Shown: positions 9,810 through 59,095 of the stretch, one piece after another
Position numbering within the stretch: the stretch's first letter is position 1
Layout: every line of letters begins with the position of its first letter
Source: Octopus vulgaris
Taxonomy: Eukaryota
Direction of reading: 5' to 3'
DNA: 64,000 nt
Assembly: GCA_951406725.2 (NCBI GenBank)
Contig: OX597818.1
Coordinates: forward strand, 70,990,001-71,054,000
Position numbers and translations under genes: made by a program
Notes under the pieces: model-generated
Told to the model about the DNA's origin: nothing
Seen by the model: the letters and a program-made list of their open reading frames with translations, nothing else
Database searches by the model: none

Positions 9810-10355
9810 AAATATTAATAAATATAAGGGTAGCAAAAAATTCTAGAAAAAATCTCCGCTACCAGCGGTCTAGCGAGAAAGGAAAGATAGTCAAAGACTA
9901 TATAATATACATTCAAAAATATAAGAAATGGCCATAATAGGACATTCGACTCACTAGAAAGAGCAGCCAAACTCAAACCGCTAATAGTTGTAATTCTGAA
10001 ATTGAAAGAGAAAATTTAATTTATATATAGCAAGAAGTTGAGGTTATAAGAGATAATGGTGTCACTGAGACCCAAAGGTGTCAGGTAATGCTGAATAAGT
10101 GCTAGAGACAGACCATAGTTAAGTTCCAGATTCGGTGATATTGCAAATAAAGGGTTCAACGTTGGTTCTATGTCAGCGTATGTATATAAGAATTTTTTGC
10201 GTAATAAGATAAAAAAACCAAGGCTGTGTAGATATTAGAGCATTTATAGATAGAAGGTCTTATCCTAGAAACAGCTGTAAGACCTTCTATCTATAAATGT
10301 TCTAATATCTACACAGCCTTGGGTTTTTATCTTATTACGCAAAAAATTCTGATAT
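9810..10355. mobile_element. Penelope-like terminal-repeat fragment in (TA)n, with terminal inverted repeat
   Basis: Flanked by (TA)n. 10205-10262 is homologous to 58805-58864. Inverted arms about 10183-10262 and 10278-10357. Confidence 0.6.
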
Positions 10356-10384
10356 ATATATATATATATATATATACATGCACT

Positions 10385-26269: not shown

Positions 26270-26555
26270 CACCTCGATCCTTTACCACCTTCTCCACGAG
26301 ACTCAACAACCTAAGGATGGGCTTCACTACTTTGTCTTGCATCTTCCTGGTTCTCCCTCTTCCACGAGTTCCATCAACATTTAGTGATTGGCACTTGCTT
26401 GTACAGCTGTCCTCATTACAGATGCATCATATGACTACAGCAGCACAGTCTTCTCACTTCCACGTCTGATACCTCTCCTGCCCAATTATTCTCTCAGTGT
26501 ATTTGCACTTTGTCATACATATGCACTGACATCGCATTGAGCCATGTGCCTTCAC
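26270..26555 (-). mobile_element. Old RTE C-terminal fragment, inverted relative to the adjacent copy
   Basis: Resembles 1170-1380 (cttcctgg..ctcttccac..acagctgtcctc). Confidence 0.65.
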
Positions 26556-26603
26556 TGGTGGAGAAATATGCTCACACACACACACACACACACACACATA
26601 TGT

Positions 26604-28148
26604 ATATGGTTAGTGAGAGCTGTACAAGCCATGTACAGAGATGCTGTCAGTAAGATGTGGGTTGGCAACAAGTACAGTGAAGAATTCTGGGTAGGGGTAG
26701 GGGTCCACCAAGATTCAGTCCTCAGCCCCCTCCTATTTATCATAGTCCTCCAGGCAATAACAGAGGAATTCAAGACAGGATGCCCCTGGGAGCTCCTCTA
26801 TGCTGATGACCTTGCTCTAATTGTTGAGTCACTATCAGAACTAGAGGAGAAGTTTCAGGTGTGGAAGCAAGGATTAGAATCGAAGGGCCTTAGAGTCAAC
26901 CTAACAAAAACCAAAGTCCTAATAAATAGGATGGCAGACAGCCCACAAATCTCTTCATGTAGATGGCCCTGCTCGATCTGTAGAAAAAGCATAGGTAGAA
27001 ACTCCATAAGATGTACCCAGTGTAAGCTATGGACATATAAGAAGTGCAGCAATATCAAAGGAAGGCTAACTGGGAAGATAGTTTTTGTATGTGGCAGATG
27101 CTCAGGATCAATAAACACTGAAAAATGTGCAGAAAACAGCTTCCATCACATTCCATGGGGTAAAACTACAAGTAGTTGATAGCTCCCGTTACCTAGGTGA
27201 CCAAGTCAGTAGCGGGTGGTAGATGCTCTGAAAGTGTAGCTGCTAGAATAAGAATAGCCTGGGCTAAGTTCAGAGAGCTCTTACCTCTGCTGGTGACAAA
27301 GGGCTTCTCACTCAGAGTAAAAGGTAGATTGTATGACACGTGTGTGAACAGCCATGCTACATGGCAGTGAAACATGGGCCGTGACTGCTGAGGACATGTG
27401 TAAGCTTGCAAGGAATGAAGCCAGTATGCTCTGCTGGATGTGTAATGTCAGTGTGCATACATGACAGAGTGTAAGCGCCCTGATAGAAAAGTTGGACTTA
27501 AGCATCAGATGTGGCATACAAGAGAGATGACTGCACTGGTATGGTCATGTGTTGTATATGGATGAGGAGAGTTGTGTGAAGAAGTGTCACACACTAGTAG
27601 TAGAGGAACCTATGGAAGAGGTAGGCCCAGGAAGACCTGGGATGAAGTGGTGAAGCACGACCTTCACACACTGGGCCTCACCGAGGCAATGACGAGTGAC
27701 TGTGACATTTGGAGATATGCTGTGCATGAGAAGACCATAACCTGTGGCCTATGCTAGTGCAGTATAGCCAGTCCATTTAAGAGTACCTTTCAATCATTGG
27801 GCAATAAACTGCGCTTGTGAGGACTTGTTGAGGCAAGTGAAGTCGTTGTTGTGGCCACTGGCAGGAGTACCATCTGATTGGCACTCCTGCCACTGGCACA
27901 TAAAAAGCACCATTCGAGCATGGTCGTTGCCAGTGCTGCCTGACTAGCTCCCGTGCCAGCGACATGTAAAAAGCACCCACTATACTATCGGAGTGGTTGG
28001 CGTTAGGAAGGGCATCCAGCTGTAGAAACTTTGCCTGAGTGGATTGGATCCTGGTGCAACCATCTAGTTTGCCAGCCCCCAATCAAACCGTCCAACCCAT
28101 GGCAGCATGAAAAGCAGACATTAAATGATAATGATGTTGATGATGATA
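26604..28148 (+). mobile_element. RTE-clade LINE: RT, C-terminus and 3' UTR
   Basis: GVHQDSVLSPLLF, LLYADDLAL, GLRVNLTKTKV, GRGRPRKTWDEVV; the 3' UTR ends in (GAT)n. Frameshifted. Confidence 0.92.
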
Positions 28149-32010: not shown

Positions 32011-32194
32011 TATTTATATGTATATATAGTTACATTTATCTATACTGGTGTGTGTATCTATACATGTGACTGTATGTGTGTATCTATGTGTGTGTGTGTG
32101 TGTGTATGAACAATTTTATATATACACATATATTTCCGTACATTGAGCTTTTACAAGATTCTTTTCATCTCTTCTTTATCTTTCTCCCTGACAG

Positions 32195-32449
32195 ACGGTC
32201 CACGTTTCATTAGTGCTAGTAGTCATGTAGCAGTAGACCCGAGAGAGAATGCTAAGCTGAAGTGTGAAGCTGATGGTAATCCTCAACCGAGCATCATTTG
32301 GCGGAAAAAAGGTTCCCATAATATCTTGGGAAGTGGTTCGACCTTGGAGCTTGTAGAAGTCAATGATGCAGACCTAGGCACCTACTATTGTACAGCCACA
32401 GTTGTTGGTTTTAGTGAAATCAGTCGAGAAGTACTGCTTTTAAAGAATG
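32195..32449 (+). CDS. KIRREL: Kirre/Neph-like gene exon: Ig domain (probably Ig4)
   Basis: ctgacag acceptor, gtaagt donor, 255 nt, phase 1/1. Reads YGPRFISASSHVAVDPRENAKLKCEADGNPQPSIIWRKK...DLGTYYCTATVVGFSEISREVLLLKN(G), a canonical I-set pattern. Confidence 0.95.
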
Positions 32450-33771
32450 GTAAGTCATGCTACTTCCTGTATTTCAGTGGTTTTGAAATCAGTAGTGTAG
32501 AAGTTCACACCTAAAAAGGAAAGTCAAAGCAAGTTTTTGTTGAGACTTGGGTCAGTTTTGGTTGAGCAGACCCATGGTTTGTTTTAGAACAGAAGATGTC
32601 AGATATTTCAAACATAGTTTGTGTATGCATGGTCAACTAAACCTCTGTACTATCAAAATCAAATCCCACTGATAAAAAAAAAAGGAGAAAAAGAAAAGAA
32701 AAATAGGATGAACAGGGATAAAGGAACACAATTCACTGATAGTCAGGAAGAGTTGAACTTAGTGGCTCATGGTCACTCACATCAAAATGTCAAATAACAA
32801 CTTTACAGTCAGCTTGTATGCCTTAAACATTCAACAACAGCAAAACGAAAAGAGTAATGGAAAACATCTGAAACTTGTAAAACTCCCCCAGTAACTAATT
32901 TTCAACAGCTGTAGTTGAATTGCATTAATATTGACAAATGTGATAACATTTTGGCCCCCTTAACTAAATGAAAAGTGAAAATGAGAGTTTTTGCTTGCTC
33001 TTAGATAGCTAAAATGGTTTCTCAACTAAGTAATTGCTATAAGTGTTTTAAGCTATAAGATTGATTTCAGTCTGGGCATATATGACTCTCGACTTTATTG
33101 AGAAGGTAAAATGAGATTGTGTAGCATTCATGTCTTTCTAAAAGACATTTGTGAGGAAGGGTAAGAAGTGAAATTGCTTCAGTTGGGTATCAACATCAGA
33201 TTTTGACTGAATCTCTCTGAAAGTATAAAACATTATCAACAACAAATCATCATTATCATGCACTTTTTTCCTTATATTGGCCCTGGTTAAACAAGTCTAC
33301 AGCAGAGTTATGGAAATGCATGTAGGTGATACCTGAAATCTTAGATTTAAGATCTGATATCACCCATATATTCATATATCTTTCTTGGTCTTTCTCTACA
33401 ATGAATTTCTCTCCTTTTGAATACTAAGCACTCTTATCTATCAATCACAGCTCTTCCATAATCAACACTTTTGCTTATAGTTGAAATTAGAGCAAAACTA
33501 TTCAAAATATATTCTAACATGAAAGAAAAAAAATGTTTCTTTTTTTAAAATAGGGAAGTTTAAGAAACTGCATTCTTTCTTCAATGGCTGTAGTCAATCA
33601 AAACCTATTGCCAAGAGAGTTCATCGTTAAGTATACAGCAAGAGACACAAGTTCCCCACCTTCTATTTTCCTCTTTGTCAGTCAACTTCATGCCTGTGTG
33701 TGTGTGTCTGTATTCCTCCCTATCCACACATACATGTTCATATAATTCTTATTTATTTTTTTAATTTTCAG

Positions 33772-55419: not shown

Positions 55420-58080
55420 CTTTTAATCTGCATGTTTGTTACAATCACTCACCAAGACACACCCAGCATCCTAGGGGCAAGTGAAGGGTAAGAGATGTTA
55501 TAGTATAAATGTAAGTTTGCGGAGGGGAAGTGGCAGGGGCAGTAGTGGAATATCTTCATGTAATACAACACAGACATTTAAGTCACTGGTATGGCTAAAG
55601 TATTGATCGCTTCAATCTTGTTTCTTGCATTCAGCTGTCTTGAGTATTGCCCTTACCCTGTGATAGCATTCTTTTTTTACCCTTTCCTCATCATTGAATG
55701 TTTAATTCCATCACCTTCAAATACCCCTAGATATTTGTATCTCTCTGCTTGTTCTAATTCCTTTATGACATTCTGTTGGTCAAGATTAACGTTGGGTGTT
55801 TCTGTCATTTTCCCTTTGATAAAGATAGCTTTTGCACATTTATCGAGGCCAAATTGCATCCTGATGTCATCACAGAATTGTTTAACAATTGCTAGTAAGC
55901 CCTGTAGCTGTTGGTCAATTTTTGCAAAGAGCTTTAAATCATCCATCTAAAAAAGATGATTTAGATTTTTATCAAACATCTTTTAGCCATATTGTACATC
56001 ATTGAGCATTCGAGAGAGGTATTAAGGCTAGTCTCAAGAGAAGTAATGATAGAGAGTCACCCTGGAAAATGCCACATGAAATTATTACATCGCCAGCATT
56101 GAGAGATTCATTGCCACTGTTCAAAGTCTGAGTGGTTCTCCAAGATCTCATACTTACAGACAAGAAGTTTCGCAGAATAGATGCTATTTTATAAATTTCC
56201 AGACATTTCTTAATCCAGTTTTGTGGTAGACTATCAAAAGCTTTTTTTATAGTCTATCCAAGCTATCAACAAGTTCTTGTGTCATTTGTGATAATCTTCC
56301 AAGATCATCTTATTGATGAGTAGCTGATCTTTACAACCATAGGACCCACGTTTACATCCTTTTTGCTCATTAGGGAATATAACACTTTCTTTTAAAAAAG
56401 CTATAGGTGTATTCAGTCAAGACAGATGTTAGTATTTTATAGATTGTTGTTAAGCAGGTTATGGGTCTATCATTTTTGGGTTCATTTGTTTCTTCATTTT
56501 TTGGAAGTAGGAATGTAATGCCATTAACTTGCTGAGAAGGAATCGTATTAGGTTGCTGCAAAACATTGTTGTAAAGTTCTGTTAGCAGTTCATGACTCTC
56601 TGACAAGGCATTCAACCAGAATTTAGGAATTTTATCCTTTCCTGGAGACTTCCATTTGCTTGACTTCTTGAGAGCAGATCTTACATTTTCTACATTGATA
56701 CCGTCCCACTTTTGCTCTTCTAAGGAGTCTAAGTCAGTAGATATTCTAAGAATCCAAGGGATGCTTTTATTGTGTATCTTTTCTTCTGCCCAGATTTTAT
56801 TCCAAGATTCTTGCACTTCTTCTTTTGATGGGACAGACTTTACTGTAACTGGGATTTTCCTTATCTTTCCGTTAAAGATTTCTTGGGTTATTTTTGAACA
56901 TGTTGTTGTCCTTGAAGAATCTAACCTGCTTTTCATACCATGCTATGGGGGCAGCTTTAGTAGATACCTTTATAGTTTCTATGGTGATATCGATGTCAAG
57001 GATGGTTTTCATGTATACTTTTTCTTTAATTTTCAGATTTTTGTTGGTTTTGATATTCTTGTCAAACTTAATGTTTTTAAACATTCTATGTCAGACCTAA
57101 GTAACTGAATGTGGTGTTGAATACATTCTTGCCAAATAGGCTTTTTGTGAGAATGTTGTTCTTCTAATCTTTTCGCCACTTAGAGATCTTTGCAGATGCA
57201 TAGTACAGGTGATTGAAATTGGCAACATCAACATCATTAGCTGAAATTATATCCTTAAGTGCAAGGTGGATTTTACCAATTACTTTCAGTTTTTGGAAGA
57301 GTGTCATGTTCATTCATACTGATTTCTTTAATCTTCCACCATTCAATCATGTCCAGTTAGGTCAAATTCTGTGTGATTTTCTTCATCAATTTGATTTTCA
57401 TCTGCCTCGGTGTTTATCGTTGGTTTCATTCTGCTTATCAGTTACATTCACTCTTTCTATCATTACTGCATTTTTATCAGATCTGGGTTGGTCTATAATT
57501 ATTTCCTCTGTAGTATCTTCTTTAGCTGCAACTTCGTTCCTTTTATCTCTTACTGATTGTTTAATTTGGTCAATCTCTAATTCAGTTAGTAATTTCTTTT
57601 TCTTAATGTTTCTTCTGAAGTTGGCAAGTTTGTTACTGTCTATGTAGGATCTTACTTCAAGGTTCTTCTCTCTCCAGTTTAGGGAGGTTTGTTCAGTATT
57701 AGATTTATTTGTGGGGAAATACGTGGCACAATAGAAGGCACTAAGAACTTCTTTATTATCTCCCCTTGACCATCTTTCATTCTTTTTCCTTTGGTTGTCT
57801 GATGATGAGTGTGGATGGCCATCTGTTGGAATATTCCAGTTGTGGGGTACTTCCAGCTTCTGTGTTTCAGGAAGATTTGAGCCAGTAGCTGATTTTTGCA
57901 CCCTGTCTGGTTCCTCACTGGGGTGTGCAACCCTTGTTGATTCAGGCAACGGCAGATCTAGTGTGTATTTTGCTGTTATTATTGAGGCATGACGAGCTTG
58001 GATGTTGACATTAGGGGACAGATCTGTCTGTTTAAGGTTAACTTTTTGAGACAACACCGCCTCCAAGTTCTCTGAATGAA
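55420..58080 (-). mobile_element. R4/Dong-like LINE remnant (N-terminus + RT)
   Basis: WKSPGKDKI..FWL, RPITCLTTIYKILT, MDDLKLFAK, DIRMQFGLDKCA, YKYLG; many stops. Confidence 0.9.
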
Positions 58081-58795: not shown

Positions 58796-59095
58796 TAGAC
58801 AGAATGAGATAAGAAATCCAAGGCTGTGAGGAGTTTTCAGGACATTTATAATGAAACAGTCTTACAGCTGTTTCTAGGATATTATGGATATCCCTTCATC
58901 AGAGACGGTGAGAAAAAATATTTGAGTTTGAATTATTGTGGAAAAGATGGGGAATATAGAGGGAAATAAGAGAATGAAAGTAGAAATAAAATACATAATG
59001 ATATTGTAGTTGCATCTCCACTATTCAAGGAAAATGGTGTATAAAAGTGGTAAAAAAGTTTGTTGTACATGGTGTGTGAGTTCCAATAGCAGTTA
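58080..59095 (-). mobile_element. Penelope-like element remnant: terminal repeat with hammerhead motif, RT fragment
   Basis: SLYQDDAL...RKDLLKFF..FNLSIT...TFLDV (GLYRDD/FLDV-type PLE RT) at 58412-58624; hammerhead motif upstream on the same strand. Confidence 0.7.
58857..58908 (-). ncRNA. Minimal type-I hammerhead ribozyme motif (Penelope-associated)
   Basis: Minus strand: CCGUCU-CUGAUGA-A-GGGAUAU-CCAUA-AUAUCCU-A-GAAA-CAGCUG-UA-AGACUG. Intact core boxes, 7-bp stem II, palindromic minimal stem III, GUA cleavage triplet, GUCU/AGAC stem I. Confidence 0.75.

Follow-up and report, generated by a model that had tools for sequence, protein, structure and literature searches.

A locus in the genome of Octopus vulgaris carries two inverted arms that meet close to the predicted cleavage site of a hammerhead ribozyme motif. 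It lies in a window, i.e., the whole stretch of 64,000 nucleotides of contig OX597818.1 that was analysed. The initial annotation proposed that reverse transcription had run off the 5' end of a self-cleaved RNA and switched template. It also proposed that such cleavage defines the ends of the element and yields its inverted repeats. The question is thus whether this junction, and others of its family, record ribozyme cleavage in vivo. The function of hammerheads in Penelope-like elements (PLEs) is called unclear in the accessible text of PMC8557442, and that of PMC4209133 reports no in vivo evidence for their role.

Structure and parent family of the insertion

The hairpin is real and is a part of a larger insertion at 10028-10350 (Table 1). 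As initially described, inverted arms exist; they align at 10179-10262 and 10278-10360, with 79 of 84 columns identical and 5 different. A hammerhead 3' half indeed opens the right part at 10261, and the predicted cut falls at 10279|10280. Positions below are given relative to this cut, +1 being the first base after it. The last unambiguous base of the left arm is 10260, i.e., the complement of +1, and the TA at 10261-10262 can be assigned to either arm. The left boundary, initially set at a TATATA at 10183, was wrong. The left arm runs on for 156 bases, to about 10028, through a tail found across the family, which borders a TA-rich target at about 10022-10027. This tail matched the inverted tail of a locus bearing reverse transcriptase (RT), L489, in 113 of 114 columns (98% identity to that of the window), and was aligned with about 240-280 segments among the collected loci.

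Table 1. Features of the insertion and of the related hammerhead copy, in window coordinates
Feature	Position	Strand	Remark
Tail	10028..10182	-	Left arm only; extension past the short 3' end; common to other family copies
Left (tailed) arm	10183..10260	- (element sense)	Spans +1 to the TATA site at the short end
Junction microhomology, 2-nt TA	10261..10262	.	Left arm at most to -2, right arm at most to -19 (L124)
Hammerhead 3' half	10261..10279	+	Part of the stem II 3' strand, GAAA core, palindromic stem III region, GUA triplet
Right (short) arm	10280..10350	+	Downstream of the predicted cut; ends at the short 3' end
(AT)n microsatellite, right-hand target	10352..10377	.	
Complete minimal type I hammerhead, related subfamily	58859..58906	-	Core starts at 58902; predicted cut 58863|58862

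Other features were noticed in the window. The left flank, 9810-10020, matched at 74-77% a repeat that L047 carries in both orientations and L095 in one copy, and is a separate element. The segment 9483-9512 resembles the hammerhead region weakly (78%, E 0.31) and is possibly a decayed copy. ORF-like fragments at 1379-1837, 2463-2891, 26541-27179 and 56370-56942 are presumably of LINE-type RT/endonuclease, and an exon-like Ig-domain ORF was seen at 32110-32514.

The repeat is not due to chance, since a 21-mer of the arm had 708 exact matches in the genome versus 0 for the reversed control. The first 30 of the 708 matches, taken unselected, comprised 18 plain 5' truncations (-24 to -345) and 12 inversions, and none of the 30 began at +1. 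Copies have one of two 3' ends, a short one at about +73 or a tail end between about +210 and +240, and both lie at TA. In longer copies, about 1.1 kb of non-coding DNA separates the arm from an ORF that encodes a cysteine cluster and matches GIY-YIG weakly; parent loci with RT motifs and GIY-YIG carry the same arm at 85-94%. In L489, upstream of the arm, collinear with it and on the same strand, a frame interrupted by two stops resembles RT and has a YRDD motif; it matched a neighbouring PLE-type ORF at 44% (tblastn). This frame is presumably RT, as judged by its motifs; its stop-free pieces gave no Pfam RT hit.

The GIY-YIG match (Pfam PF01541, E=0.0027 and 0.036, below the curated cut-off) is C-terminal, about 1.1 kb before the ribozyme. 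The element may be Neptune-like. The GIY-YIG is preceded by a four-cysteine cluster, whose spacing is not exactly the CX2-5CxxC described for the Neptune/Nematis RT-EN linker in the accessible text of PMC8557442. The hallmarks of EN+ PLEs are present, i.e., inverted pseudo-LTR (pLTR), tail at one end, 5' truncation and microsatellite targets, and the family is most likely an EN+ PLE with a weak C-terminal GIY-YIG match.

PLEs typically have an inverted pLTR and a tail on one side only, as far as PMC3846280 and PMC8557442 were accessible, and the locus adds one more copy to this known layout. The EN+ PLEs described there share with the present family 5' truncation, head-to-head inverted repeats, a tail at one end only, microsatellite targets, a hammerhead in the pLTR and palindromes at junctions. 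They differ in the tail, which has about 140-170 nt in this family versus 30-40 in theirs. A non-LTR retrozyme, i.e., non-coding tandem hammerhead monomers, was rejected, as the copies are dispersed truncations of an ORF-bearing element.

Two candidate parents were also discarded: the search from the flank of L340 ended in a different repeat, and the RT fragment in L127 belongs to a neighbouring element. Local duplication was seen once (L340). At L489:3450-6830, a 3.3-kb direct segment with RT and GIY-YIG is joined to a short inverted tail; this long form of the two-ended layout lies outside the census described below. Another abundant TA-flanked repeat with many inverted pairs (L414-L441) is probably a further PLE-type family.

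The hammerhead motif

The hammerhead was identified by pattern and stem counts. An Rfam scan of the window at E up to 1 found no hammerhead, only microsatellite-driven matches, and monomer folding gave neither a hammerhead fold nor unusual energy (z -0.7 to 0.8). The minimal type I features are present in the family, i.e., the core C3-G5-A6-G8-A9, GAAA, the UH triplet and the palindrome 15.2-16.2. Across 123 copies, helix I has 4 bp, with pairs intact in 96-117 and the fifth pair absent, and helix II has 7 bp. The 8-nt palindrome is intact in 107 of them and pairs between two molecules in a co-fold, i.e., a dimer fold. These helix lengths, an extra nucleotide after A9, the palindromic helix III region and the dimer fold are shared with the minimal type I PLE hammerheads described in the accessible text of PMC4209133.

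Unlike those hammerheads, most copies have C in place of U4 (82/123, with U in 27), the first stem II pair (10.1-11.1) is mostly G-U (91, versus 22 with G-C), and an extra unpaired purine precedes GAAA. Because of these three deviations, ribozyme activity is uncertain. At the locus itself, 10261..10279 lacks the 5' core, without which it cannot form a ribozyme on its own. The copy at 58.8 kb, initially placed in the same family, is indeed kin (76-80%), within a related subfamily, and its hammerhead has U4. A sister subfamily (L356-L383) has a G-C first stem II pair, a shorter loop II and often U4.

Census of inversion junctions

In the accessible text of PMC3846280 and PMC8557442, there is no histogram of junctions against the cut site, and none for PLEs was found in the literature searched, which held few of the subscription papers. 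A term search of the main text of bioRxiv 10.64898/2026.07.22.740005, as far as accessible, found no 'cleavage site', 'junction' or 'breakpoint'. Junctions were collected by three pattern searches with exact anchors on both arms, a spacer of 14-400 bases and a tail anchor, which gave 89 + 43 + 74 = 206 hairpins, and were called by split alignment in all of them. Nine of the 206 rows were dropped, i.e., seven duplicated events (one conservatively) and two double-counted both-tail loci, and 197 independent hairpins were kept. The census leaves out longer inversions (over 400 bases) and any copy whose anchors are mutated, and the pairing of a short with a tailed arm is partly built into it, because the tail anchor was required.

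The junctions were scattered. An arm ended exactly at +1 in 13 of the 197 hairpins and within -2..+1 in 23, whereas at least one arm read to -3 or beyond in 114 and both arms stopped at +2 or later in 64. Tailed arms peaked at +9 (15), +1 (12), -7 (10) and +5 (8), and short arms at +9 (11), +10 and +13 (8 each) and -7, +7 and +17 (7 each), with only 3 at +1. Among 108 clean junctions, 98 had microhomology of 1-12 nt and 10 were blunt. Insertions were found at 89 of the 197 junctions, many of them resembling nearby arm sequence. Downstream and upstream positions of the short-arm end relative to the tailed-arm end were equally frequent (87 hairpins each), and the two ends coincided in 23. The median gap between arm ends was 11, versus 35 when permuted, and none of 2000 permutations was as low.

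Expected counts were taken from a conditional model whose terms were smooth position, closeness and microhomology. Tail ends at +1 numbered 12 against 7.2 expected (p=0.024), and short ends 3 against 3.1. Tail ends were also in excess at -7 (10 vs 3.3, p=8e-4) and +9 (15 vs 7.5, p=0.004). Since these sites beat the null as much as +1 or more, the null under-fits and the p-value at +1 is optimistic; with several such sites and no excess over the region -2..+4 (20 vs 23.7 expected), that p-value alone is weak. With base-composition terms added, z was 3.0 at -7, 2.5 at +9 and 2.5 at +1. Looser junction calling raised the tail count at +1 from 12 to 13 and left -7 at 10. The tailed and short arms differed at +1 (12 vs 3, p=0.035), with 10 vs 7 at -7. 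Ends of tailed arms are modestly concentrated at +1, to no greater degree than at -7 or +9.

Arms beginning at +1 after a non-matching base were searched genome-wide. The 63 rows comprised 20 point or indel variants, judged by eye, and 43 true breaks, which represent 37 independent ends. Both arms ended at +1 without overlap in 5 of the 25 hairpins from this search (4 by script, 1 by eye), where 0.74 were expected (P=5e-4), the expectation using probabilities taken from two events. Among overlap-free hairpins, equal ends made up 5/9 at +1, versus 4/94 elsewhere (p=1.6e-4) and 3/32 nearby (p=0.007). Four further overlap-free double ends at +1 were seen by eye, in L108, L121 and two other rows. 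The simplest reading is that both cDNAs were copied up to a hard RNA end at +1, with RT stalling in the folded core as the alternative. One hairpin junction has been multiplied inside a larger repeat or duplicated segment (L175-L178, L181 and L227; G000 C27, C29, C6) and accounts for at least 7 rows of the search.

The same search at -7 (window 10273) gave 75 rows and 28 true breaks. Normalised by exact-match rates (54/107 at +1, 41/107 at -7), the sites were equal, i.e., 37/0.50 versus 28/0.38. The -7 site is a second hot spot of both arms, lies inside the palindrome, is often free of microhomology and is preceded by A in about half of the cases. This stop may mark the dimer core. Five hairpins (L126, L133, L137, L012 and L013) are perfectly symmetric around the 8-nt stem III palindrome, and two (L119, L130) are centred on a palindrome in loop II. 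Plain truncations genome-wide, under the patterns used, numbered 11 at +1 and about 6 at -7; several run into (AG)n or (TA)n, and overlap explains those. An AGA-matched control at -13 gave 2 true breaks by eye among 100 of 124 matches listed; it is colder than +1 but biased, because its partner AGA sites follow T and were filtered out. The list was also dominated by a second subfamily that the script labelled wrongly, and the control was given little weight.

The breakpoints are thus not spread uniformly, and the peak at +1 that the initial annotation anticipated is found, in tailed arms and in microhomology-free double ends. However, it is small and matched by -7 and +9, and therefore cleavage neither defines the ends of the element nor accounts for its inverted repeats, as had been claimed; more than half of the hairpins read through the site.

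Probable origin of the inverted repeats and possible role of cleavage

We consider it probable that the insertion is a 5'-truncated, inverted product of two-ended priming in a family where a minority of stops fall at the cut. Both ends of a cut TA-rich target would have primed reverse transcription, one at the short end and the other at the tail end of the RNA. Synthesis of both cDNAs would proceed towards the 5' end of the RNA and usually halt at nearby positions, and at the window copy the two cDNAs were likely joined through the 2-base TA overlap. Most cDNAs would be copied from RNA continuous across the ribozyme, and a few per cent of arms would stop exactly at the predicted cut, most likely on self-cleaved template. 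The layout, i.e., one short arm and one tailed arm, both ending at TA, supports the view that PLE inverted repeats stem from two-ended priming. According to the census, inversions form independently of the ribozyme and uncut RNA is the main template, although the read-through could alternatively stem from re-ligated or circular RNA.

On balance, we lean towards self-cleavage as the cause of the excess at +1. An explanation without cleavage is less probable and still a real possibility: AGA microhomology, trimming of longer cDNAs to it, and RT stalling in the folded, uncut ribozyme would produce the ends at +1, as for -7. A 3-nt overlap was indeed called by script in 14 of 28 hairpin rows at +1, among them most tailed ones. 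The equal frequency of -7, the lack of a regional excess around the cut and the variant ribozyme core also agree with it. However, neither the overlap-free double ends nor the tail-only asymmetry at +1, absent at -7, is readily explained in this way, and microhomology-free double ends are the best sign of cleavage.

For the window copy itself (L124), the short arm reaches -19 and the tailed arm -2, with the TA overlap. It is unlikely that synthesis of its tailed cDNA reached a self-cleaved 5' end at +1 and ran off there before a blunt join, the TA match being coincidental. The junction interval, -2..+1, does include +1, and on the tailed arm, where the excess at +1 is found; blunt joins at +1 are also known (L135, L307). 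Against this, blunt joins are rare in the census, and the right arm extends 19 bases past the cut. Under a microhomology-only model, 1.66 junctions of this kind were expected and 2 were seen, whereas look-alikes from cleaved RNA, blunt at +1 with a chance TA, were expected 0.06-0.45 times, which leaves 3-21% for run-off at the cut. The junction more likely used TA as microhomology. The initial reading of the copy as a run-off product is compatible with the junction; it is, however, probably not an example of a stop at a self-cleaved end. The template switch that was to follow run-off fits less well than two cDNAs from two target ends, as the arm ends are symmetric (87 vs 87).

Fold-back of a single cDNA, in which the tailed cDNA primes itself and its second strand becomes the short arm, is very improbable. 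The arm ends are correlated, several junctions are centred on local palindromes, and junction palindromes are taken as self-priming in the accessible text of PMC3846280. However, fold-back needs the short arm always downstream of the tailed arm; it lies upstream as often, including in the window copy, and zero-loop symmetric junctions are impossible as fold-back tips. Because arm ends are close and equally often in either order, two cDNAs joined at their 3' ends fit and a one-sided fold-back does not. Long palindromes and microsatellite flanks are prone to assembly error, yet an assembly artefact or a post-insertion rearrangement is hardly credible, as the arms differ at 5/84 columns and their ends fall at two distinct sites used across the family, and each of the 197 independent copies has its own flanks and junction.

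The two-ended account resembles the activity of PAc, a PLE protein (Poseidon, Anolis), which in vitro cuts both strands and extends them from two internal start sites bounding the tail (PMC11167929, as far as accessible). The two systems share the two RT start sites, extension of both strands, AT-rich targets and uncut RNA as the dominant template. Cleavage was unnecessary in vitro, and no RNA-seq ends were reported at the ribozyme site, whereas a minority of genomic ends sit there in the present family. For R2, with its 5' HDV-like ribozyme, genomic junctions are established as a record of template self-cleavage (PMC3774820, as far as accessible). Junctions as cleavage record and joining by microhomology are common to both; however, cleavage sets the 5' end of full-length R2 copies and concerns a few per cent of ends here.

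A dimer-type reading of the stops is doubtful; if true, it would be in vivo evidence for PLE ribozyme cleavage and dimer formation. A junction census is a cheap test of what PLE hammerheads do, and overlap-free double ends at the cut site may be a small, candidate in vivo footprint of cleavage.
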